Shown here piece after piece: positions 1 through 10,125 of a DNA stretch of 10,125 nt (positions are counted from its first letter, which is position 1; every line of letters starts with the position of its first letter). The notes below the pieces were generated by a model, which searched no databases, was not told the origin of the DNA, and worked only from the letters and a program-made list of their open reading frames with translations. The stretch lies in NCBI GenBank assembly GCA_964250875.1, contig CAXUIV010000117.1, positions 1-10,125 on the forward strand, in the 5' to 3' direction. This stretch comes from an uncultured bacterium (lineage in GTDB: Bacteria > Cyanobacteriota > Cyanobacteriia > Cyanobacteriales > Chroococcidiopsidaceae). The position numbers and the translations under genes were made by a program.

Positions 1-38
1 AATGGTCAGAAGTTATATTGCAGCTTGCGGGTATCTAG

Positions 39-137
39 ATGCGTCAGAGAAAGCTGTGGTGTGTTTGGCTCTCATTTTCTGTTGGCTTTCTAGTCTGTTT
101 GGGGTTGCACATCTCAATCACTCAACAAGCGATCGCT
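39..137 (+). other. predicted Sec signal peptide (or signal anchor) of the TPR-CHAT protein
   Basis: The first 33 residues are MRQRK (n-region), LWCVWLSFSVGFLVCLGL (h-region) and HISITQQAIA (c-region with an AxA motif). The c-region is somewhat long, so an uncleaved signal anchor is possible. Confidence 0.5.
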
Positions 138-2612
138 ATGGAGCAGCACCATGTCCAATCATCTCAGTTTTATAAAGAAGGAAGTGAGGAAACGGGAGAA
201 CAGGCGATCGCCCGTTACAGTGCTGGACAGTACCGGGAGGCGATCGCGCTTTGGACTGAAGCACTGACGCAAACGTTAGATAAAAAAGATATAGCAGCCC
301 TCCACACCGATTTAGGAGCCGCCTATCGTCAGATTGGTGATTTAGGACAGGCGATCGCCCAGTGGGAGCAAGGCGCTAAAATTTATCAATCGATGGCAGG
401 TGAAGAACCGCGTCGCTTGCAGGCACAGGTGCTGACCGAGGAGTCACAGGCTTACAGCGCTTTAGGACAGTTTCGAGTTGCAGTTCCACCGTTACAGAAG
501 GCAGTGGAACTGGCTCGGAGCGATCAAGATCAAAGTACTGAAGCAGCAGTTCAAGGGGCATTAGGCAATGCTTACGCGGCATCTGGGGACTTGGAGCAGG
601 CGATCGCAGCTTACGAGACAAGTTTGAAGCTGTCTGCAAGCCTGAAGGAACCTAGCTTGACAGCCACTTCCTCCAATAATCTGGGTAATGTCTTAAACCA
701 TCGCTATAAACGTTATTCTTCTCAAGCGAATTCAGCTAGGGCAGAAGGGGATGACAGGGAAGAAGATCGCCTATGGCATTTGGCACAGCAAGATGCTACA
801 GCAGCCCAAGCAGCCTACGAACAAAGCACGCGGGAAAGTAGAACACTAGGCGGGATACTGCAAGCCAAAGCATTATTGAACCTGGCTCACTTCTTGCAGC
901 GGTTACCCTCGCCTCAACAGGATGCAATCGATAATTACCGCTCCCAAGCAATGGCAATTCTTGAAAAAGCACCCAACTCTCGTGCCAAAGCCTACGCCCT
1001 CATTAACCTAGCCCTCAGTTACGAACTCCGAACTCCGAACTCCGAACTCCGCACTCCGAACTCCGCACTCACCGCTGCCATCTCCGTAACCCAAAACATT
1101 GGCGATCGCCGAGCTGAGTCTTTTGCGCTGGGAGTTTTAGGACGGTTTTACGAGCAGGCGGGAGAGCTAAGGAGAGCAATGGAGCTAACGCAGCAGGCTC
1201 AATTTGCTGCCCAGCAAGTCAATGCGGCAGACAGCCTCTATCGCTGGCAGTCACAGGCAGGCCGAATTTATAAAGCCATTGGGCAAACCGAGTCAGCGGT
1301 TTCATCGTACAGGCAGGCGATCGCCACACTCCAGAGCATCCGCAGCGATCTTGCCACAGCCAACAAAGATTTGCAGTTCGATCTGCGCGACTCTGTAGAA
1401 CCTGTCTACCGAGAATTGATGGCACTACTTCTAGATGAAAGTCAATCCAAAATCACGCCAGTTCGCTCAACGGGGGGAACCCCCGCACGCGACTGGCTCC
1501 AAAGCCCAAAACCCAAAATCGAACAGGCGCTTCAGGTTTCAGAACTGTTGCAGTTGAGCGAACTGCAAAACTTCTTCGGCGATGAGTGCGTACAGGTAGC
1601 ACGCAGTACAATTGACCCCATCGCTGAACTGGCAAACACCAACACAGCCGCGATCAATTCAATCGTTCTGAGCGATCGCACCTATATGAGCTTGCGCCTA
1701 CCGGATGGATCGCTCAATAGCTATCCAGTGGCGCTGTCGGCTCAGGAGATAGAAAAAGTCGTTGATCGCCTCCGGTTCACCCTGGAGGATATCTCCACAG
1801 ACGAGTATCTCGTTGAAGCCCAGAAGGTTTATGACCTGCTGATTCGACCAATGGCAGCAGATCTAATCAGAGCGAAGCCTAGTACGCTGGTCTTCATTAA
1901 CGACGGTGTGTTGAGAAATGTGCCAATGGCAGCTCTGCATGATGGCAAGCAGTTTCTGGTGGAAAAGTATGCCATTGCCTCGACACTAGGTCTCAACCTA
2001 ACTGCTAATAAGAAGCCAGTTCAACAAAACCCTAAAGCTCTAATTTTTGGCTTGAGCGTTGAAATTCCGCCCTTTGCTCCTCTGCCCAATGTGAAAGCAG
2101 AAGCCCAAGGTGTCCAGAAAATTGTAGGAGGAGAGCGCTTTTTAGACAGTGACTTTACGTTTGCAAACTTGCAAAAGCAAATTCATACGGTTGGCTACTC
2201 AATTGTTCACCTGGCAACGCATGGCAAATTTGGCACCGATCCAGTCAGTACATTCCTGCAAGTGTTTGATCGTCGAGTTTCGCTCAATGAACTAGAAGCT
2301 GTGTTACGTCAGAGTAAGCAACCCATCGAGCTACTAACGCTAAGTGCCTGCCAGACTGCCGCCGGAGATAACCGCTCTACGTTAGGTATTGCTGGAATGG
2401 CACTACGGGCTGGGGTACAAAGTACTCTGGCGAGTCTGTGGTTTGTGAATGATGCCGATACAGTTCCGCTGATTGAAAATTTTTATACCCAGCGGCAGGC
2501 TGGCCTGACGAAGGCTGAAGCTCTGCGGCAAGCACAGCTAAAGGTCATTGCTGATGCCAATGGTCACCCAGCTATTTGGTCGCCCTTTGTTCTGGTTGGG
2601 AACTGGCAGTAA
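39..2612 (+). CDS. TPR-repeat / CHAT-domain (caspase-like) protease with N-terminal signal peptide
   Basis: The 857-aa ORF has four supporting elements. (a) The N-terminus MRQRKLWCVWLSFSVGFLVCLGLHISITQQAIA|ME has a positive n-region, an 18-aa hydrophobic core and an AxA cleavage motif. (b) Residues ~50-470 carry multiple TPR-like helical repeats (AIARYSAGQYREAIALWTEAL, LGAAYRQIGDLGQAIAQWEQGAKIY, ALGNAYAASGDLEQAIAAYETSLKL, VLGRFYEQAGELRRAMELTQQA). (c) The C-terminal ~300 aa carry the CHAT catalytic dyad, VHLATHGKF (His, nt ~2220) and LLTLSACQTAAGD (Cys, nt ~2347), with the typical hydrophobic strand before each. (d) The stop is TAA at 2610-2612. The alternative start at ATG 138 would remove the signal peptide. 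Confidence 0.85.
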   Translation: MRQRKLWCVWLSFSVGFLVCLGLHISITQQAIAMEQHHVQSSQFYKEGSEETGEQAIARYSAGQYREAIALWTEALTQTLDKKDIAALHTDLGAAYRQIGDLGQAIAQWEQGAKIYQSMAGEEPRRLQAQVLTEESQAYSALGQFRVAVPPLQKAVELARSDQDQSTEAAVQGALGNAYAASGDLEQAIAAYETSLKLSASLKEPSLTATSSNNLGNVLNHRYKRYSSQANSARAEGDDREEDRLWHLAQQDATAAQAAYEQSTRESRTLGGILQAKALLNLAHFLQRLPSPQQDAIDNYRSQAMAILEKAPNSRAKAYALINLALSYELRTPNSELRTPNSALTAAISVTQNIGDRRAESFALGVLGRFYEQAGELRRAMELTQQAQFAAQQVNAADSLYRWQSQAGRIYKAIGQTESAVSSYRQAIATLQSIRSDLATANKDLQFDLRDSVEPVYRELMALLLDESQSKITPVRSTGGTPARDWLQSPKPKIEQALQVSELLQLSELQNFFGDECVQVARSTIDPIAELANTNTAAINSIVLSDRTYMSLRLPDGSLNSYPVALSAQEIEKVVDRLRFTLEDISTDEYLVEAQKVYDLLIRPMAADLIRAKPSTLVFINDGVLRNVPMAALHDGKQFLVEKYAIASTLGLNLTANKKPVQQNPKALIFGLSVEIPPFAPLPNVKAEAQGVQKIVGGERFLDSDFTFANLQKQIHTVGYSIVHLATHGKFGTDPVSTFLQVFDRRVSLNELEAVLRQSKQPIELLTLSACQTAAGDNRSTLGIAGMALRAGVQSTLASLWFVNDADTVPLIENFYTQRQAGLTKAEALRQAQLKVIADANGHPAIWSPFVLVGNWQ
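1024..1072 (+). repeat. STRR-like heptanucleotide tandem repeat (AACTCCG x4, CACTCCG, AACTCCG, CACTC..) inside the TPR-CHAT CDS
   Basis: Direct reading gives aactccg aactccg aactccg aactccg cactccg aactccg cactcac. Three units (21 nt) encode the in-frame peptide ELRTPNS, which occurs twice (ELRTPNSELRTPNSAL). The array lies between the TPR region and the CHAT domain. Confidence 0.9.
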
Positions 2613-2619
2613 TACTATC

Positions 2620-2647
2620 TTGGATTTTAGATTTTGGATTTTGGATT
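2620..2647 (+). repeat. STRR-like heptanucleotide tandem repeat (TTGGATT x4, one unit TTAGATT) in the 49-nt spacer between the CHAT and TpsA-like genes
   Basis: The sequence is ttggatt ttagatt ttggatt ttggatt (acggact). It starts 8 nt after the CHAT gene stop codon and ends about 15 nt before ATG 2662. Confidence 0.9.
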
Positions 2648-2661
2648 ACGGACTCAATATT

Positions 2662-5097
2662 ATGAAGATCTGCTGGCAATTTTACCTTCTAGGGTTAGTG
2701 AGCTTCGTTTTCAATACGCCAGCAAGTGCGCAGATCGTGCCAGATAGCAGTGTGGGGACTAGAGTGACGCCCAACGTCACGATCAATGGCGTGCCGAGCG
2801 ATCGCGTTGACGGCGGCACAGTTCGGGGTGCCAATCTGTTCCACAGCTTCTCTGACTTCAACATTGCGGCAGGACGGGGTGCCTACTTTACCAATCCAGC
2901 AGGAATTACCAACATCTTTACCAGAGTGACAGGCTTCAGTTCTTCAAACATCAACGGCATCTTGGGAGTCTTGGGTAATGCCAATCTGTTCTTGCTCAAC
3001 CCCACTGGCATCATCTTTGGTCCCAGTGCTAGGCTGGACCTCAACGGTTCATTTCTAGCCACGACTGCCAACAGTATCAACTTTGCTGATGGCACTCAGT
3101 TTAGTGCCAGCAATCCTCAAGCTGCGCCGCTGCTAACAGTGAGTGTGCCTGTAGGCTTAGGCTTGGGCAGCAATCCGGGGGCAATTCAACTGCAAGGCAC
3201 AGGCCATAATTTAACAGTAGGTCTATTTTCACCATATATAGGAGCGGGTGCTAGCTCAACTGGTTTGCGAGTACAACCGGGGAAGACCTTGGCTCTGGTT
3301 GGGGGAGATGTTGTCTTGGAAGGGGGCATTTTAACGGCACCGCAAGGAAGAATTGAGTTAGGCGGTGGAGCTGATGGCGTAGTCACCCTCAGTCCGACTG
3401 GTCAGGGCTGGACTCTAGGCTACAGCGGAGTGCAAACCTTTCGAGATATTCAGCTCTCGCAGCAGGCATTAGTAGACGCCAGTGGAGCGGGAGGGGGTGA
3501 TATTCAGCTTGTGGGCAAGCGGATCGCGCTAACCGATTATTCAGTTGCTTTGATTCAAAATCAGGGGTTGCAGCCAGCAGGAAACATTCGTGCAAATGCT
3601 TCAGAGTTGTTGCAGGCAAATTCTCTTAGCGGTTTGGACAACGAAACTGTAGGAGTTGGCAAGGGAGGAAATATTACAATTTCGACGCCTCGGTTGTCCC
3701 TAGATGATGGGGCTGTAATAGATACTAGAACATTCGGTGCTGGTTTAGGTGGCAATATAACAGTCGATGCCTTCGAATCTGCGCAGTTGAGTGGATTTCT
3801 TCCCAGTAGTGCCGCTAATCGCAGCACGATCGTTGCCGCAGCTTTCGGTTCTGGACGGGGAGGAGATCTCACAGTTTCAACCAAACAATTAACTATTCTT
3901 GATGGAGCGTACATCGCGGGTGCAACCTTAGGAACTGGGCCTGGAGGGAATGTGAAGGTAAACGCCGCCGATTCTGTAGAAGTCAGCGGAGTCGAGCCTA
4001 GCTTTTTGTCGTCAAGCGCTGTTAGTTCTGCAAGTTTCAGTGCTGGGAATGCTGGTACCGTAATAATCAATACTTCTAAGCTGGTGGTTCGGGATGGCGG
4101 CAGGGTTGATGCTTCTACTGGTGCCAGCGGAAATGCTGGAAGTGTGACTATCAATGCCTCCGATTCTGTCGAGGTGAACGGTATGGCGCTAGGTGGTAAT
4201 CCTAGCCTACTGAGTTCGGCTGCTAGCATTTTGGACCCAGCCTTCCGTCAGCTTTATAGATTGCCTCCAGTAGCGAGTGGCACCTCTGGAGATATAGCTA
4301 TTAATACAGAAGAATTAAGTGTAACTAATGGTGGTCTCGTCAACGTCCAGAATGATGGGACAGGCAATGGAGGAACGGTGTGGGTTAATGCCCCCTCGAT
4401 TACTTTAGACAACCACAGTGGCATTACCGCTGCCGCCGCCTCCGGTCAAGGCGGCAATATTGCTTTACAGACGCAGGACTTACAGTTGCGTCATGGCAGT
4501 AACATCACGGCGACCGCAGCGGGCGTGGGTAATGGCGGCAATATTAAGATTGATACCGAAACTTTAGTCGCCTTAGAAAACAGCAACATCACGGCCAATG
4601 CCTTCAAAGGCAGTGGCGGCAATATCCAAATTGTCACTCAAGGAATCTTTCTTTCTCCTGACAGTCATATCACTGCCTCCTCTCAACTCGGTGTGAGTGG
4701 TGCCGTCAATGTATCTGTGGTCAACCTCAACCAGCAGAATGCGCTCGCGATCGCCCCCAGTAACTTCGTCAGCGGGGAGCAGCTAGCGCTCGACAGTTGC
4801 CTAACTCGCAACAATGCTAGACAGGGAAAGTTTGTGGTGACAGGCAATGGTGGTTTGCCGGAAACGCCTGATGAAGCCTTGGTGGTGCCCTACGACTTGG
4901 CACAGGTGCGAGCAGTTGGCAGTCGGCAGTCGGCAGCTAGGAGTCGGGAATCGGCTCCAGTCTCATTCTCTCCTTGGAAGTTGGGAGACCCAATTGTCGA
5001 GGCAACAGAGTTTGCCGTCAATGCCAATGGACAAGTTGTGCTGACAGCTTCTGCCGCCAAGGCGATCGCCAACCCACAAGCGTTAACCTGCCAATAA
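2662..5097 (+). CDS. TpsA-like secreted exoprotein: filamentous-haemagglutinin N-terminal (TPS / haemagglutination-activity) domain plus beta-helix repeats
   Basis: ATG 2662 gives MKICWQFYLLGLVSFVFNTPASA|QIV, a clear signal peptide. The six-frame ORF begins at 2548, but that start overlaps the upstream gene and precedes the signal peptide, so 2662 is preferred. The TPS domain hallmarks are NGVPSDRVDGGTVRGANLFHSFSDFNI, NPAGITNIFTRVTG, ILGVLGNANLFLLNPTGIIFGPSARLDLNGSFLATTA and a Gly-rich region (GKTLALVGGDVVLEGGILTAPQGRIELGGG). About 10 imperfect 19-22-aa repeats of the form GxGGN(I/V)x(I/V) follow (GGNITIST, GGNITVDA, GGNVKVNA, GNAGTVIIN, GNAGSVTINA, GGTVWVNA, GGNIALQT, GGNIKIDT, GGNIQIVT), predicted to form a right-handed beta-helix. 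The last ~120 aa are non-repetitive. The stop is TAA at 5095-5097. Confidence 0.85.
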   Translation: MKICWQFYLLGLVSFVFNTPASAQIVPDSSVGTRVTPNVTINGVPSDRVDGGTVRGANLFHSFSDFNIAAGRGAYFTNPAGITNIFTRVTGFSSSNINGILGVLGNANLFLLNPTGIIFGPSARLDLNGSFLATTANSINFADGTQFSASNPQAAPLLTVSVPVGLGLGSNPGAIQLQGTGHNLTVGLFSPYIGAGASSTGLRVQPGKTLALVGGDVVLEGGILTAPQGRIELGGGADGVVTLSPTGQGWTLGYSGVQTFRDIQLSQQALVDASGAGGGDIQLVGKRIALTDYSVALIQNQGLQPAGNIRANASELLQANSLSGLDNETVGVGKGGNITISTPRLSLDDGAVIDTRTFGAGLGGNITVDAFESAQLSGFLPSSAANRSTIVAAAFGSGRGGDLTVSTKQLTILDGAYIAGATLGTGPGGNVKVNAADSVEVSGVEPSFLSSSAVSSASFSAGNAGTVIINTSKLVVRDGGRVDASTGASGNAGSVTINASDSVEVNGMALGGNPSLLSSAASILDPAFRQLYRLPPVASGTSGDIAINTEELSVTNGGLVNVQNDGTGNGGTVWVNAPSITLDNHSGITAAAASGQGGNIALQTQDLQLRHGSNITATAAGVGNGGNIKIDTETLVALENSNITANAFKGSGGNIQIVTQGIFLSPDSHITASSQLGVSGAVNVSVVNLNQQNALAIAPSNFVSGEQLALDSCLTRNNARQGKFVVTGNGGLPETPDEALVVPYDLAQVRAVGSRQSAARSRESAPVSFSPWKLGDPIVEATEFAVNANGQVVLTASAAKAIANPQALTCQ
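4918..4952 (+). repeat. degenerate heptanucleotide tandem repeat (GGCAGTC GGCAGTC GGCAGCT AGGAGTC GGGAATC) inside the 3' end of the TpsA-like CDS
   Basis: The period is 7 and reads ggcagtc ggcagtc ggcagct aggagtc gggaatc, encoding ..GSRQSAARSRESA.. in frame. It is more degenerate than the other arrays. Confidence 0.6.
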
Positions 5098-5187
5098 AGC
5101 GGATCGCTAGCCGTCAGTACAGGAGACCGACATCCGGTCAGACTTTCAACCACCGACAACCAACCAGGGACAACTGATGGTTGGGGC

Positions 5188-5208
5188 GAGAGGTCTTGCG
5201 ATCCTCTC
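5188..5208 (+). terminator. weak hairpin (GAGAGG-9 nt loop-CCTCTC) in the TpsA-flotillin intergenic region; possible attenuator or terminator
   Basis: The sequence gagagg tcttgcgat cctctc forms a 6-bp stem with a 9-nt loop. No U-tract follows, and the free energy was not computed. It lies in the 224-nt gap, the only sizeable intergenic space among the co-directional genes. Confidence 0.2.
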
Positions 5209-5321
5209 AATCTGGAATAGCTTAGCAACCCCTAAAGTCAAGTTTTGTAAACAATTCAGTAATTTCCTGGAGTCAGCCTGATAGCCATACAAATACAGCC
5301 TTGGCGAGAGGTTAATTACAA

Positions 5322-7304
5322 ATGGCTAAAATTACAACGTTTCTTAGAAAATTTGCGGCTTCAAATTTCTGTAGTAAGTTTTTGCCGTTTGCTGCCTCTT
5401 TATTGGTAGGAGCAGCGACAACTGGAACCGCCTCAGTAACTGCCCAAACAAGCCCTCCACCACAGCGAGCGCCAGAAGTTCAACTCGTGCAAATGGGAGT
5501 TTTCAGTTCGCCAATTTGGCTTTATCCGGTAGGTACCGTTGTGCTGATACTCATCTTCATTCCGCGCCTTGGCTGGATTATGGGGCTGATCGTCATTGGC
5601 GATCGGGAAGTTGGGATTGTCACCAAGAAATTTTCCAAGGCGAGTTTGCCGCCCGAAAGACTGATTGCGCTGAATGGCGAGGCCGGTTTACAGGCGGATA
5701 CGCTGCCTCCTGGCTGGCACTTTGGGTACTTTCCTTGGCAGTACAGCGTGCGTAAAGAATCAGTTAAAATTATTCCTCAAGGTGAAATTGGGTTAGTTGT
5801 AGCGAGTGACGGCAGAGCTATGCCATCGGACCGGATTTTAGGCAAGGTCGTCGCTTGCGAGGATTACCAAAATGCTCGACAATTTCTGCTCAACGGCGGA
5901 GAAAAGGGACGGCAGTTAGGCATTCTCACAGGCGGCACCTACCGCATTAATACAGCACTGTTCGAAGTTATCACTTCTGCCAATGCTGCCAAACACGAGA
6001 TCACTTCAGCGCAACTAAAGGTCCACGCGATTGAGGCAGACAAAGTAGGGATTGTCACCACACTAGACGGTAAACCGATTGAAGAGGGTGAGATCGCCGG
6101 ACCTGTTATTCCTAATCACGACAGCTTCCAAAAAGCCCAGGCTTTTATCGAGGGAGGTGGATGTAGAGGCTTGCAGGAACAGGTTGTGCTTTCCGGTTCG
6201 TGGAACCTCAATCCTTGGCTGGCAAACGTTGAACAAGTGCGAATGACTGAGGTGCCGATTGGTTATGTAGGCGTCGTGATTTCTTTTGTAGGAGAATCCC
6301 ATAAAGATATTAGTGGAGAATCATTTACTCACGGCAATTTGGTGCATAAAGGTGATAAAGGAGTTTGGGTTGAACCTCTGTATCCCGGCAAACACCCGCT
6401 CAACACCTACATCATGAAAGTGGAACCTGTTCCCACAACAAATATTGTATTGAATTTTACTTCGCGCTTTAGTGGAGAACACGGTTACGACTCCAAGCTC
6501 AATGCGCTGAAATTGCTTTCCTTTGATGGATTCACGTTTGAGCTAGAAATCTTTCAGATCATTCATGTGGGTGCCCTTGATGCGCCAAAGGTAATCTCTC
6601 GTCTAGGTTCAATGCAAAATCTGGTAGACCAAGTGCTGCGGCCAATTGTAGGTAACTATTTCCGCAACTCGGCTCAGGAATACACGGTTCTAGATTTCCT
6701 GATCGCCCGGAGTGAACGACAGGCAGAAGCTGCCGAACACGTTCGACAGGCACTCCGCGCTTACGATGTACAGGCAGTGGATACGTTAATCGGTTTGATT
6801 ACGCCGCCGCCAGAACTCATGCAGACGTTGACCGATCGCAAAATTGCCCAAGAACAGGAGAAAACCTACGAGATCCAGCGCACGGCACAGTCCCAACGGC
6901 AAGAACTGGTACGAGAGACAGCACTAGCGAACATTCAAGAGGAAATGGTCACGGCAGAACAAGGAGTCAAAATTGCCGAACTGCAAGCTACGGCGACGGT
7001 GAAACAGGCTAATGGGGAAGCAGAATCGATTCGAGTCACGGGCCAAGCCAAAGCTGATGCCTATCAAGCAGGCGTGAATTCCCTTGGCGCTCAAGCTTAC
7101 ACGGCGTTGCAGCTTATGCAAGTTATTGGCGATCGCCAGGTGCGAGTTGTTCCTGATGTTGCAGTTAGCGGCAGTGGTAATGGTGGAGGTTTAATTGATG
7201 GCTTGATGGGCATGATGCTGTGGAATCAGTCTAAGGGACAGGAGAATGACGGTCATAATGGCCAGCCTGCGCTGATGAATGGAGAAGTGAAGAGTGAGGA
7301 GTGA
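5322..7304 (+). CDS. flotillin / YqiK-like SPFH (band 7) domain membrane protein
   Basis: The ORF is 660 aa. A hydrophobic hairpin (SPIWLYPVGTVVLILIFIPRLGWIMGLIVIG) is followed by an SPFH-type region (EVGIVTKKF..., GEIGLVVASDG...). A long heptad-like Ala/Gln/Glu-rich coiled-coil segment runs from MQTLTDRKIAQEQEKTYEIQRTAQSQRQELVRETALANIQEEM to ATVKQANGEAESIRVTGQAKADAYQAG. The C-terminal flotillin-type motif is AYTALQLMQVIGDRQVRVVPDVAVSG...GLIDGLMGMM. A GAGAGG sits 13 nt upstream of ATG 5322. An alternative start at ATG 5493 (MGVFSSPIWLY...) would remove a 57-aa N-terminal extension. Confidence 0.8.
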   Translation: MAKITTFLRKFAASNFCSKFLPFAASLLVGAATTGTASVTAQTSPPPQRAPEVQLVQMGVFSSPIWLYPVGTVVLILIFIPRLGWIMGLIVIGDREVGIVTKKFSKASLPPERLIALNGEAGLQADTLPPGWHFGYFPWQYSVRKESVKIIPQGEIGLVVASDGRAMPSDRILGKVVACEDYQNARQFLLNGGEKGRQLGILTGGTYRINTALFEVITSANAAKHEITSAQLKVHAIEADKVGIVTTLDGKPIEEGEIAGPVIPNHDSFQKAQAFIEGGGCRGLQEQVVLSGSWNLNPWLANVEQVRMTEVPIGYVGVVISFVGESHKDISGESFTHGNLVHKGDKGVWVEPLYPGKHPLNTYIMKVEPVPTTNIVLNFTSRFSGEHGYDSKLNALKLLSFDGFTFELEIFQIIHVGALDAPKVISRLGSMQNLVDQVLRPIVGNYFRNSAQEYTVLDFLIARSERQAEAAEHVRQALRAYDVQAVDTLIGLITPPPELMQTLTDRKIAQEQEKTYEIQRTAQSQRQELVRETALANIQEEMVTAEQGVKIAELQATATVKQANGEAESIRVTGQAKADAYQAGVNSLGAQAYTALQLMQVIGDRQVRVVPDVAVSGSGNGGGLIDGLMGMMLWNQSKGQENDGHNGQPALMNGEVKSEE

Positions 7305-7311
7305 GGGATGA

Positions 7312-7869
7312 GTGGCTGCTTACTGTTTTAATCCCGGTTGTCTAGCGCCCGAAAATGCTAGTTCAGATACATCCTGCCGTAGTTGTGGCGATGGTTTGCA
7401 GTTACAGGGACGCTATCAAGCCATTCAACTGCTTAGACAGGGAGGATTTGGCAGAACTTTCCTCGCGATTGATTCTGCTCAAACGCCTCCCTCTCCCTGC
7501 GTGATCAAGCAATTCTGGAACCATGTCAACTTACATTCTGATCGGGCTGAAGCATTCTACCTAGAACAGCGATTAGGTGAGTTAGGGAGTCACTCGCAAA
7601 TTCCGACACTGTTAGACAGCTTTGAGGAGGGCCACTTTTACCTAGTGCAAGAATATATTGCCGGGGAGAACCTAGCAACGATCCTTGCCACCAGTGGCCG
7701 ATTCAGTACGGATGCGGTTTGGCAAATTCTAGAGTGCCTGTTGCCTGTGCTGCAATTCATTCATGAACGAGGAGTTATTCATCGCGATATTAAGCCAGAG
7801 AATATCGTTTGTCGCTTTCGCCTAACTCCATTGCCCAAACAAGGATTTCAACGATTTAGTCCTGGTTGA
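7312..7869 (+). CDS. N-terminal fragment of a Ser/Thr protein kinase (4-Cys zinc ribbon plus kinase N-lobe and catalytic loop), truncated by a frame change
   Basis: The GTG start at 7312 lies 8 nt after the flotillin stop, preceded by gaggga. The N-terminus CFNPGCLAPENASSDTSCRSCG has the C-x-NP-x-C...C-x2-CG zinc-ribbon pattern common at the N-terminus of cyanobacterial Hanks kinases. Kinase motifs present are RQGGFGRTFLA (Gly-rich loop), CVIKQF (VAIK Lys), FYLVQEYIAGENL and HRDIKPENIV (catalytic loop). The ORF then reads CRFRLTPLPKQGFQRFSPG and stops at TGA 7867. The DFG motif lies in the +1 frame. Confidence 0.75.
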   Translation: MAAYCFNPGCLAPENASSDTSCRSCGDGLQLQGRYQAIQLLRQGGFGRTFLAIDSAQTPPSPCVIKQFWNHVNLHSDRAEAFYLEQRLGELGSHSQIPTLLDSFEEGHFYLVQEYIAGENLATILATSGRFSTDAVWQILECLLPVLQFIHERGVIHRDIKPENIVCRFRLTPLPKQGFQRFSPG

Positions 7870-7888
7870 CTTCGGTGCGGCAAAACTG

Positions 7889-9166
7889 ATGACTCCGACG
7901 ACGTTGACGCAGTTGGGAACGACGATCGGTAGTCCCGAATATGCGGCCCCTGAACAAGTGAAAGGTAGAGCAGTTTTCGCTAGCGATCTTTACAGTTTAG
8001 GTGTGACTTGCATTCACCTCCTAACCGGAGTTCGTCCTTTTGACCTGTTTGATTCTGCCAATGACACTTGGGTATGGCAAGATTTCTGGCTTCCAGAAGC
8101 GGTCAACTCTAACGCAGAGCGCAGCAGCCAACTGGTTCAAGTTTTAGGTCGCTTGGTAGAACCTGCCCTGAAGCAACGATTTACCTCAGCTGAAGCGGCG
8201 ATCGCGTTTATTCAACCGAGAGGGAAGATCCGATCCATACCTGCTGCCCCAGCCTGGAAATGCGACGTTACCCTTAATAGTCATAGTGGACTATTCGCTA
8301 GCGTCAATGCGGTAGCGATCGCACCTGATAACAAGTTGCTTGCCAGTGCCAGTGATGATAAAACCATACGGATTCGGGATCTGCAAACCGGGGAAGAATT
8401 AGCATTACGGGGGCACACCAAATTTGTCAAAGCTGTTGCTTTCCATCCCCAGACGCAGATCCTAGCTAGTGGCAGCTGTGATCGCACAATCAAGCTCTGG
8501 GACCAGCAACTGCAAGAAATTCGGATTTTGAGTCATCAGCATAGTGTCAATGCTTTGGCGTTCAGTTCCAGTGGACAGGTTCTTGCGAGCGGCAGCTCGG
8601 ACAAAACGGTAAAATTATGGCATCCCGACGGTAAGCAAATCGGGACGCTGGTAGGACATACCCTCGCTGTCAACGCTGTTGCCTTCAGTCCGGTTGCGCC
8701 GATCTTAGCTAGTGGCAGCTCTGATGCAACTATAAAAATCTGGGACTCAAGCTTTGAGCTGATACAAACCCTCATCGGACACACGTCGGCGGTTCGTGCG
8801 ATCGCCTTTAGTCCTGATGGTCAACTCCTAGCCACGGGCGGCGAAGATCGCACAATTCGCCTATGGGATGTCGCATCCTGGAAGTGCGTTCGCATTCTAC
8901 CCGGACATTCTTGGGCAGTCTCTGCCCTGACGTTTTCACCCGATGGATCACTGCTCAGCGGCAGTTGGGACAAGACGGTCAAGTTGTGGCAGACAAACAC
9001 GAGTAGCGAAATCGCACTGCTGGCCGATCACACAGATTCCGTCAACTGTGTGGCGATGGCGTCGGATGGCAGCTTTATTGCAAGTGGCAGCAAAGATAAA
9101 ACCGTGAAATTATGGCGGCCCACAGGCGAAGGGGGAAAGGCGAAGGGCGAAGGGGGAACTTCCTGA
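7889..9166 (+). CDS. C-terminal part of the same Ser/Thr kinase (DFG/APE activation segment and C-lobe) fused to a 7-bladed WD40 beta-propeller
   Basis: This frame is open from 7826 and reads LHCPNKDFNDLVLVDFGAAKL-M(7889)-TPTTLTQLGTTIGSPEYAAPEQVKG...DLYSLGVTCIHLLTGVRPF, covering kinase subdomains VII-IX and onward. Seven WD repeats follow between ~8276 and 9120: LASASDDKTIRIRD, LASGSCDRTIKLWD, LASGSSDKTVKLWH, LASGSSDATIKIWD, LATGGEDRTIRLWD, LLSGSWDKTVKLWQ and IASGSKDKTVKLWR. The C-terminal tail GEGGKAKGEGGTS is encoded by a GGCGAAG heptamer array. The ATG at 7889 is only the first Met of the frame. The true unit is probably one gene spanning 7312-9166, carrying a 1-nt frame change. Confidence 0.75.
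   Translation: MTPTTLTQLGTTIGSPEYAAPEQVKGRAVFASDLYSLGVTCIHLLTGVRPFDLFDSANDTWVWQDFWLPEAVNSNAERSSQLVQVLGRLVEPALKQRFTSAEAAIAFIQPRGKIRSIPAAPAWKCDVTLNSHSGLFASVNAVAIAPDNKLLASASDDKTIRIRDLQTGEELALRGHTKFVKAVAFHPQTQILASGSCDRTIKLWDQQLQEIRILSHQHSVNALAFSSSGQVLASGSSDKTVKLWHPDGKQIGTLVGHTLAVNAVAFSPVAPILASGSSDATIKIWDSSFELIQTLIGHTSAVRAIAFSPDGQLLATGGEDRTIRLWDVASWKCVRILPGHSWAVSALTFSPDGSLLSGSWDKTVKLWQTNTSSEIALLADHTDSVNCVAMASDGSFIASGSKDKTVKLWRPTGEGGKAKGEGGTS
9125..9159 (+). repeat. STRR-like heptanucleotide tandem repeat (GGCGAAG GGGGAAA GGCGAAG GGCGAAG GGGGAAC) forming the last codons of the WD40 gene
   Basis: Direct reading shows period 7. The array ends 5 nt before the TGA stop at 9164-9166. Confidence 0.85.
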
Positions 9167-9285: not shown

Positions 9286-9353
9286 CTCTTCCCCCTTCCC
9301 TTTCGTCCTTCGTCCTTCGTCCTTCGCCTTTCCCCTTTCCCCCTTCCCCTTCC
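9286..9353 (+). repeat. pyrimidine-rich heptamer array (TTCGTCC x3, TTCGCC, TTTCCCC, TTTCCCCC, TTCCCC), the inverted copy of the 9125-9159 array
   Basis: The reverse complement reads GGGGAAGGGGGAAAGGGGAAAGGCGAAGGACGAAGGACGAAGGACGAA, sharing GAAGGGGGAAAGG and GGCGAAGG blocks with 9125-9159. It directly abuts the stop codon (cta at 9353-9355, = TAG on the minus strand) of the convergent RNase gene. Together the two arrays form a long imperfect inverted repeat around a spacer of about 125 nt, a candidate bidirectional terminator. Confidence 0.8.
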
Positions 9354-10125
9354 TAATTCGCCGTTGGCTGAACTTGGGAGTAAGTTAATTCCTGAAACTG
9401 AATGATGTCCTGACGGGGATCGACGTGACTTACCTTGACTAACAACTGTTCGCCTAAAGCTGCGGAACGCTTAAAGGACATCGGCAACTGTAAACCCAAA
9501 TCCTCAAGCAGGATCAGTCCTAAGCGGCTGTCTTCTCGCAGCCACATCAGCAGCAAAGTCTCCCACACCCGTTCACCCTGACGACGCAGGTATTCTAAAC
9601 CCCAATAGCGGTTGGTTTGCCGTTCCACTAGTGTGACCTCTTGGGTCGCTGTGGTGACACTCAGCATGACTTCTTTAAGTTGCTCAGCTGAGAAAGGGGG
9701 AGCTTCACCGCGTAGATGCGCCTTCAGTTGAAAGTGGGTAAGCAGATCGGTGTAGCGCCGGATAGGAGAAGTTGCTTGGGTGTATGTGTTTAAACCTAAA
9801 CCAGAGTGACGGGCTGCCGTAATGCTCATTTCGCTCCGAGCCATACACCGACGCATTGCACAGTCTCGCACGGGACCCGCTGGCAGCTGGAGTAACTCCT
9901 CCTCTGAAGGCAGTTCAGGCTGAGGCTGAGTCCGAAACGGCATGGCAAGGTTGTGGGTTTGACCGTATTGAGCGGCAACTTCACCAGCTAAAATCATCAT
10001 TTCCGCTACCAGTTGCCGTGATGATGAGTCCTCTAAAAGTTCAATTGTGATCTCGTCATCATGAACTTTAATCATTGCCTCTGGTAGGTGGATACTGATT
10101 GCTCCTTGAGTGTGCCGCCAAGCTT
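9353..10125 (-). CDS. RNase II / RNase R family 3'-5' exoribonuclease (RNB catalytic domain C-terminal part plus S1-like domain), 5'-truncated by the window edge
   Basis: The minus-strand ORF contains the RNB signature HSGLGLNTYTQATSPIRRYTDLLTHFQLKA (compare HFGLGL..YTHFTSPIRRYPDL..H.QL in RNase II/R). A C-terminal S1-like region (GERVWETLLLMWL...GLQLPMSFKRSAALGEQLLVKVSHVDP) follows. The frame stays open through 10076-10125 (..HTQGAISIHLPEA-M-IKVHDDE..), so the gene continues beyond the window. The listed Met at 10075 is not the start. Confidence 0.8.
   Translation of the reverse strand, partial: AWRHTQGAISIHLPEAMIKVHDDEITIELLEDSSSRQLVAEMMILAGEVAAQYGQTHNLAMPFRTQPQPELPSEEELLQLPAGPVRDCAMRRCMARSEMSITAARHSGLGLNTYTQATSPIRRYTDLLTHFQLKAHLRGEAPPFSAEQLKEVMLSVTTATQEVTLVERQTNRYWGLEYLRRQGERVWETLLLMWLREDSRLGLILLEDLGLQLPMSFKRSAALGEQLLVKVSHVDPRQDIIQFQELTYSQVQPTAN

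Follow-up and report, generated by a model that had tools for sequence, protein, structure and literature searches.

A TPR-CHAT protease and a TpsA-like exoprotein on a cyanobacterial contig probably belong to a CHASE2-associated envelope system distinct from the adjoining flotillin-kinase pair

The window analysed here, a complete contig of 10,125 nt (CAXUIV010000117.1, assembly GCA_964250875.1) from an uncultured cyanobacterium of the Chroococcidiopsidaceae, carries on its + strand genes for a predicted exported TPR-CHAT caspase-like cysteine protease (857 aa, 39..2612; Pfam CHAT 5e-56 and TPR families), a TpsA-like exoprotein of the two-partner secretion (TPS) type (811 aa, 2662..5097; Pfam TPS 5e-64, TIGR01901 6e-23), a flotillin/YqiK-type SPFH protein (660 aa, 5322..7304; Band_7, PF01145, 7e-26) and a Hanks Ser/Thr kinase-WD40 protein with a 4-Cys prefix (7312..9166; Pkinase 2e-19, WD40 5e-86, 4Cys_prefix_kin). 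The initial annotation regarded them as one envelope-associated caspase-like signalling or conflict module. Very probably, the window instead consists of two independent conserved modules that are adjacent only in this lineage, namely the CHAT-TPS pair (39-5097) and the flotillin-kinase pair (5322-9166). As an explanation of the whole, we favour with moderate confidence the view that, besides being separate from its neighbours, the CHAT-TPS pair represents one half of an envelope system tied to CHASE2 sensors. The best protein matches of the window are all cyanobacterial, HIP1-type GGCGATCGCC palindromes are present, and the exact CHAT protein was seen on no longer contig; the fragment probably stems from a filamentous cyanobacterial lineage without heterocysts.

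The conservation of the CHAT neighbourhood was analysed by scanning an alignment of 27 CHAT homologues (A1) against one genome per species. This gave 79 loci, extending at most 10 kb to either side of CHAT, from Cyanobacteria, Nitrospira, Verrucomicrobiia, a Burkholderiales metagenome-assembled genome (MAG) and a Desulfonema MAG; 40 of them have full flanks. The open reading frames (ORFs) of these loci were clustered without prior labels, using crude ORF calls and single-linkage BLAST, and the recurrent clusters were named by Pfam afterwards. These clusters turned out to be TPS proteins, CHASE2 proteins with HATPase_c, DUF928 proteins, POTRA_2/ShlB proteins (TpsB) and response regulators. A TPS gene is present at 53 of the 79 loci (31 of the 40 with full flanks), the CHASE2 cluster at 49 (30 of 40) and DUF928 at 47 (29 of 40); all three occur together at 37 loci (25 of 40), and at least one partner, TpsB included, was found at 66 (37 of 40). 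TpsB itself is rarer (20/79 and 10/40) and directly adjoins the CHAT gene in 14 loci; examples are the locus L032 and the Nitrospira loci. The commonest direct neighbour of CHAT is DUF928 (34/79). For comparison, 63 flotillin-anchored loci (59 from metagenomes and four looked up; tblastn with the window proteins) contain a TPS gene only once, which supports the functional link between CHAT and TPS that had been suggested from the sequence. The module of CHAT, TPS, DUF928 and CHASE2 is thus spread over Cyanobacteria, Nitrospira and Verrucomicrobiia. In Nitrospira, all genes are co-directional in the order TPS, TpsB, CHAT, DUF928, ABC_sub_bind, CHASE2, response regulator. The periplasmic binding protein gene (ABC_sub_bind, PF04392) lies between DUF928 and CHASE2 in every Nitrospira version (L065-L083), which suggests a lineage-specific additional input component.

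Neither DUF928 nor CHASE2 is encoded in the window, and the initial annotation had expected a TpsB gene just upstream of its first base. The relatives have other genes there: in the six closest ones with sequence at this position (L001, L002, L007, L008, L009, L013), DUF928 and a CHASE2 sensor are found upstream of CHAT, divergently oriented in L001 and L002. Furthermore, bases 1-38 of the window match the spacer between DUF928 and CHAT in L001 and L002. No TpsB gene (POTRA_2/ShlB) is encoded in the window or within 10 kb in L001 and L002. Judging from these alignments, the CHAT-TPS pair very probably belongs to the CHASE2/DUF928 neighbourhood, with the DUF928 and CHASE2 genes lost past the contig end.

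DUF928 proteins possess a leader followed by the consensus Y.PP....P....GGGSRGC, in which the Arg is invariant and the next Gly is conserved in more than 90% of the sequences. Among the 46 proteins of the CHASE2 cluster, 34 have a CHASE2 hit (1e-5), and their outputs comprise HATPase_c (22), cyclase (6), GGDEF/EAL (4), Pkinase (2) and a fused CHAT domain (3). Because these outputs are interchangeable, the periplasmic neighbours constant and CHASE2-CHAT fusions exist, CHAT, DUF928 and TPS are best placed on the input side of CHASE2. Two very long members of the cluster in alignment A4 (L016 4329-9731 and L007 16597-22538) may be multi-domain fusions.

The separation of the two pairs is evident from the closest complete genome (L002, 6.99 Mb). 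Its locus has the order CHASE2-kinase, DUF928, DUF928, CHAT, TPS, TPS, RNase II. Positions 1-5094 of the window align to L001 and L002 with ~79% nucleotide identity across CHAT and TPS. On the other side, the synteny is anchored by a conserved flank, the RNase II/R gene on the - strand (9353..10125; RNB 2e-25 for ORF 9353-10075), of which the window holds the 3' part, truncated where the contig ends: 9353-10125 is 93.7% identical in nucleotides to L002 17861-18633. Judged by these identities, the CHAT-TPS part evolves much faster than the RNase II flank. In L002, a second TPS paralogue fills the slot where the window has the flotillin and kinase genes; in other close relatives, this slot after TPS holds TpsB (L032) or unrelated genes (L030). 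Since both flanks of the window are co-linear with one L002 locus, the arrangement is a genuine replacement and no assembly chimera, for which two compensating breakpoints would be needed. The flotillin-kinase pair has either replaced the second TPS paralogue between TPS and RNase II or was elsewhere replaced by it, and it is a bystander to CHAT-TPS.

The proposal that all four proteins form one envelope caspase-like signalling or conflict system, with CHAT acting on the TpsA-like protein and the flotillin and kinase-WD40 providing scaffolding and signalling, is very improbable under these data. It draws on the adjacency and common direction of the genes in the window, on the locus L003, where a TPS and a Peptidase_C14 gene lie within 6 kb of a flotillin gene whose product is 94% identical, and on the kinase-WD40 cluster within 10 kb of CHAT in four of the 79 loci (two of the 40 with full flanks). 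In the latter cases, however, positions and orientations vary, and a flotillin gene does not occur at any of the 79 CHAT loci, including the 40 with full flanks. Conversely, the 63 flotillin loci contain CHAT once (L006) and TPS once (L003). The syntenic locus of L002 lacks both flotillin and kinase, a 224-nt gap separates the two pairs, and the kinase is cytoplasmic and frameshifted (see below). The four-part reading is thus already largely refuted by the neighbourhood data, and the comparison across genomes that had been called for together with it shows CHAT-TPS as conserved and flotillin as absent from the 79 CHAT loci. Tight co-directional packing is ordinary in bacteria and is no evidence of a system. 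In this respect, two of the four spacers reported initially (49 and 224 nt) are exact; the others are 7 nt (7305-7311) rather than 8, and 19 nt (7870-7888) rather than 20, the last one lying inside the broken kinase gene and not between genes. A promoter and terminator scan of the window gave fewer sites than in shuffled sequence and says nothing on co-transcription.

The domain assignments of the individual proteins (CHAT/TPR, TPS, Band_7, Pkinase, WD40) proved sound, all of them lying far above the Pfam thresholds. The CHAT protein consists of a hydrophobic leader (aa 5-28), a TPR superhelix (approximately aa 50-470) and the CHAT domain (PF12770, aa 594-855). The catalytic dyad, described as intact in the initial annotation, is indeed so: His728 (ATHGKFG, codon 2220..2222, +) and Cys771 (LSACQTAAG, codon 2349..2351, +) do not vary across the 27 homologues of A1. 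The protein is predicted to be a protease. Its export leader, like that of the TPS protein, was called by hydropathy, and an N-terminal hydrophobic segment is also present in 108 of 120 CHAT homologues, in keeping with the earlier assignment of leaders to both proteins. With such leaders, CHAT and TPS would encounter each other in the envelope. The AlphaFold2 (AF2) model (pLDDT 77.5) contains an N-terminal helix, a long TPR superhelix and the CHAT alpha/beta domain, and its top Foldseek matches are Csx29/craspase (8eey_B, 2e-14), separase and the periplasmic TPR-CHAT of DdvA. Aligned identity to the Csx29 and separase matches is 9-14%, with a Foldseek identity of 9-12% in the comparison with Csx29/craspase, and phmmer of the protein against the PDB returned TPR matches only, with nothing for the CHAT region. 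The analogy to type III-E CRISPR drawn before is thus valid at the level of the fold (TPR superhelix and CHAT fold with the His/Cys dyad, as in Csx29 and separase) and fails for sequence relatedness of the CHAT region and for an association with cas genes. Csx29 and separase are cytoplasmic, and Csx29 is Cas7-11-bound and RNA-activated, whereas the CHAT protein of the window has an export leader and no cas genes beside it: Pfam finds no cas domain in any ORF of the window, and no recurrent cas cluster is among the annotated top clusters of the 79 CHAT loci. Within the CHAT gene, a heptanucleotide tandem repeat at 1022-1070 (CGAACTC/CGCACTC, period 7, 14-21-nt units) encodes ELRTPNSELRTPNSAL. 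The alignment of the window with L002 is interrupted precisely there, at 1026-1062, which suggests that this stretch of the TPR region is a repeat of variable length.

The TpsA-like protein starts at the ATG at 2662, within a longer ORF beginning with TTG at 2548. It comprises a putative signal peptide (aa 1-22, cleavage between ASA and Q), the TPS secretion domain (aa 23-283) and a beta-helix up to approximately aa 687. The sequence MKICWQFYLLGLVSFVFNTPASA followed by Q looks canonical for a signal peptide, the leader being taken from hydropathy, and 100 of 120 TPS homologues have a hydrophobic N-terminus as well. The TPS match spans profile positions 1-252, and TIGR01901 (adhes_NPXG) is matched with 5.6e-23. 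In the AF2 model (pLDDT 81), the right-handed beta-helix of aa 25-687 is confident, mostly above 90, and Foldseek retrieves every TpsA of solved structure, namely HxuA, EtpA, HMW1, HpmA and FHA (E values of 6e-10 to 1e-4), in agreement with the original description of a TPS exoprotein with beta-helix repeats. An antisense ORF inside the gene (3561-4229, -, 222 aa) was treated as spurious and is probably an artefact of Gly/Ala/Ser-rich repeat coding.

The protein ends in a C-terminal tail (aa 688-811; 4723..5094, +), which is conserved in alignment A2 and predicted by AF2 to be disordered save for one hairpin, with pLDDT below 50 over aa 688-770. It contains Cys713 (4798-4800, +), the motif F724-x-V-T-G-x-G-G-L-P-x-x-P736 (4831-4869, +) and Cys810 (5089-5091, +). 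In A2, conservation reaches 90% or more, up to invariance, at C713, F724, G728, G730, G731, L732, P736 and C810. The pattern Cys-x(5-25)-F-x-[IV]-x-G-x-G-G-L-P is matched by 43 of 55 TPS proteins encoded near CHAT genes. In these 43, the protein ends 20-113 residues (mostly 55-113) past the motif, and 40 of them have an additional Cys 2-19 residues before the C-terminal end. Many CHAT-linked TPS proteins hold just 2-5 cysteines in 800-2000 residues. We regard the tail as a candidate periplasmic retention or cleavage module. The AF2 model of the tail contains no toxin-like or globular domain, which bears on another conceivable function, the delivery of a CdiA-like contact-dependent inhibition toxin with CHAT as the processing enzyme. 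Although the protein is a TpsA with TPS domain and beta-helix, it has only 811 aa, it ends in a conserved disordered tail of 125 aa instead of a variable globular toxin, and no small immunity ORF follows the TPS gene; we give this possibility practically no weight.

How these parts could work together is suggested by the best-documented parallel, in Pseudomonas aeruginosa. There, the TpsA protein CdrA is kept in the pore of its TpsB, CdrB, by a C-terminal cysteine hook (PMC4694147; PMC7616799 citing Cooley 2016). LapG, a cysteine protease of the periplasm under the control of LapD, a receptor in the inner membrane, cuts the C-terminal end of CdrA and thereby releases it, and this release is tied to nucleotide signalling by the inner-membrane receptor (PMC4694147, PMC7616799). 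Here, too, a TpsA with a C-terminal Cys pair is accompanied by a Cys protease with an export leader and by a transmembrane sensor. By analogy, we tentatively propose a mechanism of proteolysis and signalling. In this scheme, the TpsA-like fibre would be exported via TpsB and held at the surface by its Cys-bracketed tail, like CdrA in CdrB; the periplasmic TPR-CHAT protease would cleave the TPS tail and/or DUF928, so that the fibre is matured or released (cf. LapG acting on CdrA); and this proteolytic event would be coupled to the periplasmic CHASE2 domain and lead to a cytoplasmic output (phosphorelay, cNMP or c-di-GMP). The full system would then consist of the TpsA-like protein, the exported TPR-CHAT protease, DUF928 and the CHASE2 transmembrane sensor, with TpsB and a response regulator as further, not always present, members. 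Still more doubtful is the specific notion that CHAT, the TpsA-like fibre and DUF928 constitute the extracytoplasmic input pathway of CHASE2, with the caspase-like cleavage as the sensed event; candidate sites for it are the Cys-bracketed tail of the fibre and the invariant Arg-Gly of DUF928.

The similarity to CdrA/LapG/LapD is one of function only. The protease here is a clan CD TPR-CHAT protein, whereas LapG is transglutaminase-like (BTLCP); the place of LapD in the membrane is taken by a CHASE2 sensor whose outputs vary; DUF928 has no counterpart in the CdrA system; and the tail motif is FxVTGxGGLPxxP, its cleavage being predicted by analogy. FhaB/FhaC of Bordetella (with SphB1, DegP and CtpA) offers a second parallel, as a TpsA that is reported to lose its C-terminal periplasmic part by dedicated or regulated proteolysis (PMC8263021, PMC6070651). 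There, however, a prodomain of ~1200 aa and serine proteases are involved, and here a tail of ~125 aa and a candidate caspase-like protease.

The same genes permit a different assignment of roles. In this alternative, a proteolytic cascade generates the ligand: the substrate of CHAT would be DUF928 (at its invariant Arg-Gly) or CHASE2, the product would be the ligand or activator of CHASE2, and the TpsA-like fibre would be no substrate but an extracellular sensor or bait that switches CHAT on via its TPR part. DUF928 lies directly beside CHAT more often than any other gene (34 of the 79 loci), its R-G pair within GGGSRGC comes right after the leader, and CHASE2-CHAT fusions exist. Moreover, TPR-CHAT proteases are switched allosterically by a bound partner, and DdvA has been proposed to sense a periplasmic protein (PMC11506125). 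We consider this cascade unlikely, both for the CHAT substrate and for the role given to the fibre: the conserved Cys-bracketed tail stays unexplained by it, and the cleavage is hypothetical. It partly overlaps the preferred explanation and does not exclude it.

DdvA, an anti-sigma factor of Myxococcus xanthus, has been called the only periplasmic TPR-CHAT protein reported so far, and proteolysis-driven transmembrane signalling by its CHAT domain upon an extracytoplasmic protein signal was proposed for it (PMC11506125). The likeness to the CHAT protein of the window lies in the periplasmic TPR-CHAT itself, which is among the top structural matches. However, DdvA carries a fused transmembrane helix and zinc anti-sigma domain, controls a sigma factor of the extracytoplasmic function (ECF) class and has an incomplete active site, whereas the CHAT protein of the window is free-standing apart from its leader and encoded with TPS, DUF928 and CHASE2, without a sigma or anti-sigma partner.

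The fold similarity to DdvA and Csx29 could also be taken as a hint at an envelope sensor for phage defence or kin conflict, in which the fibre serves as decoy or receptor, TPR-CHAT senses the invading protein and the output proceeds via CHASE2. TPS genes occur in several copies, with no fewer than five paralogues of 73-75% identity in the L002 genome, and the CHAT-TPS region is faster-evolving (~79% versus 93.7% identity for RNase II). A tandem array of three TPS genes in the L002 genome (L145 9001-16572), with no CHAT gene close by, is located beside cas1/cas4/cas6, DUF433/DUF5615 and PIN toxin-antitoxin-like genes, and this proximity of a TPS array to cas and toxin-antitoxin genes would fit such a sensor. 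Nevertheless, PADLOC gives only weak TPR and BovA matches for CHAT and none for TPS, the conserved CHAT neighbourhood is free of toxin domains, immunity genes and ECF sigma or anti-sigma factors, and the distribution of the module is broad and vertical, Nitrospira included. We regard a defence function as improbable; nothing specific supports the conflict role suggested initially, and PADLOC has nothing specific for CHAT, TPS or the flotillin.

Several observations speak against the explanation that we favour. Thirteen of the 79 CHAT loci have no partner gene at all, and for 12 of the 46 proteins in the CHASE2 cluster no CHASE2 hit was obtained at 1e-5, the clustering being crude. TpsB is missing at 75% of the CHAT loci and in the window, so that export through, and anchoring at, the outer membrane are assumed. 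TPS paralogue arrays also occur far from any CHAT gene (L145). DUF928 and CHASE2 lie outside the window, and their presence upstream rests on synteny with the relatives. Finally, the position at which CHAT cuts, the TPS tail's topology and the contact with CHASE2 are all inferred. The residue at P1 varies among CHAT enzymes (Arg for separase, Met or Leu for craspases; PMC11506125), and because of this variation the cleavage site of CHAT is not predictable.

Taken singly, the parts of this system are familiar (a substrate of TPS, a protease of clan CD, a sensor kinase, regulated periplasmic proteolysis); their combination is not. In the full-text literature searched, which leaves out most subscription journals, we found no description of an association of CHASE2, CHAT, DUF928 and TPS. 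Among the 8 million papers covered, DUF928 is mentioned in one, which notes only a CHASE2-DUF928-WD40 cluster in Nostoc; the main TPS review does not mention CHAT or CHASE2, and cyanobacteria appear in one reference title only. We know of no ligand of CHASE2, the signal of which has been listed as unknown since 2003. A four-part apoptosis-like module would have been striking; what was found instead is a juxtaposition confined to this contig, along with a free-standing exported caspase-like protease that is genetically tied, in at least three phyla, to a type Vb fibre, DUF928 and CHASE2. If protease and fibre were indeed the input arm, the question of the CHASE2 signal would be explained and become testable with defined candidate substrates and cleavage motifs; a second example of periplasmic CHAT signalling after DdvA would be at hand, and with it a new type of bacterial cell-surface proteolytic signalling common to Cyanobacteria, Nitrospira and Verrucomicrobiia.

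The flotillin-kinase pair (5322-9166) is a smaller, separate lead on linking cyanobacterial flotillins to signalling. The flotillin possesses a Band_7 domain and a hydrophobic membrane segment at about aa 59-94 (hydropathy). Its homologues are 70-94% identical across the cyanobacteria in the 120 clusters listed and are named flotillin or YqiK by their sources. Such flotillins are listed for ~350 cyanobacterial species, with undefined function (PMC9950537). The link to a kinase that the initial annotation had drawn is supported by the comparison: among 31 cyanobacterial flotillin loci that show 65% identity or more and continue for 1.5 kb or more downstream, 15 are followed by a co-directional kinase whose start lies no further than 1.2 kb away, mostly after a gap of no more than 180 nt. 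Twelve stop-to-stop ORFs downstream of flotillin are 607-685 aa long; in a thirteenth (L100, 526 aa), the match is confined to the C-terminal half of the kinase domain. The 4-Cys prefix C-x-NP-x-C is found in 8 of these 13 ORFs. That the orthologues contain WD40 repeats was determined from Pfam hits at L004 and L005 and, at L086, by reading the sequence itself. The order flotillin, kinase was seen at L004, L005, L086-L092, L095, L100, L102, L105, L114, L133 and L136. The locus with the most similar flotillin (L003 1-9992, 94% identity) has no kinase downstream; upstream of the flotillin it encodes a TPS protein of 1010 aa that shares the C-terminal motif described above, DUF1822 and a Peptidase_C14 (metacaspase) protein.

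Known flotillin operons (FloT/YuaG with NfeD, YqiK; Synechocystis Sll1021) likewise have an SPFH protein with an N-terminal membrane anchor, and the cyanobacterial homologues are annotated as flotillin or YqiK (PMC9950537). The known operons differ in the downstream partner, which is NfeD there and a Hanks kinase-WD40 with a 4-Cys prefix here: no NfeD domain is encoded in the window, and the gene after the flotillin is the kinase. No description of a flotillin-kinase-WD40 pairing was found in the literature searched. The flotillin stop (7302-7304) and the kinase GTG (7312) are 7 nt apart, with a GGAG-rich stretch across the junction, an arrangement that would allow translational coupling. By hydropathy, the kinase lacks any hydrophobic or membrane segment and is therefore cytoplasmic, whereas CHAT and TPS are predicted to be exported. 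In PADLOC, it matches the PD-T4-6 model PDLC04044 at 3e-52, and ~20 PD-T4-6 models as well as mad6, PglW and MkoA also match, suggesting a generic likeness among kinases; in its fusion to WD40 and its linkage with flotillin it differs from the single-gene anti-phage kinase PD-T4-6.

As assembled, this kinase domain is not in one frame, although all kinase motifs are present. The co-directional + strand ORFs are 39-2612, 2662-5097, 5322-7304, 7312-7869 and 7889-9166, and the initial annotation had accordingly counted five genes. The frame starting at 7312 covers the N-lobe up to the HRDIKPENI catalytic loop (Pkinase profile positions 1-132) and ends with the stop codon 7867-7869. From 7826 on, the +1 frame is open; its sequence, ...DFNDLVLVDFGAAKLMTPTTLTQLGTTIGSPEYAAPE, supplies the DFG and APE motifs and lies partly 5' of the ATG at 7889. 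Among the residues 5' of that ATG is VLVDFGAAK (7859-7885), in frame with the 7889 ORF. This 7826/7889 frame also contains seven WD40 repeats. The +1 frameshift is located between 7826 and ~7850, in a stretch with CCCAAA and TTT runs. An intact orthologue in L004 (649-653 aa as annotated) has HRDIKPENII...LFLVDFGAAKL...GSPEYAAPE in a single frame. Because the HRD loop and the DFG/APE motifs are split between frames and the L004 orthologue is intact, 7312-9166 is one broken kinase-WD40 gene, and the + strand carries four genes. A mutation giving a pseudogene, or an assembly indel, is the more likely cause. A programmed (RF2-like) +1 frameshift at the TGA of 7867-7869 is ruled out, since the second frame already encodes the conserved DLVLVDFG upstream of that stop.

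No tRNA and no Rfam family was found in the window. At the end of the kinase-WD40 ORF, short G/A-rich repeats (GGCGAAGGGGGAAAGG...) at 9124-9158 encode GEGGKAKGEGG. C/T-rich repeats at 9289-9365, before the RNase II stop, are 85-86% complementary to them at a distance of ~150 nt and could form with them a long hairpin between the convergent genes or represent a simple repeat of the short tandemly repeated repetitive (STRR) type.

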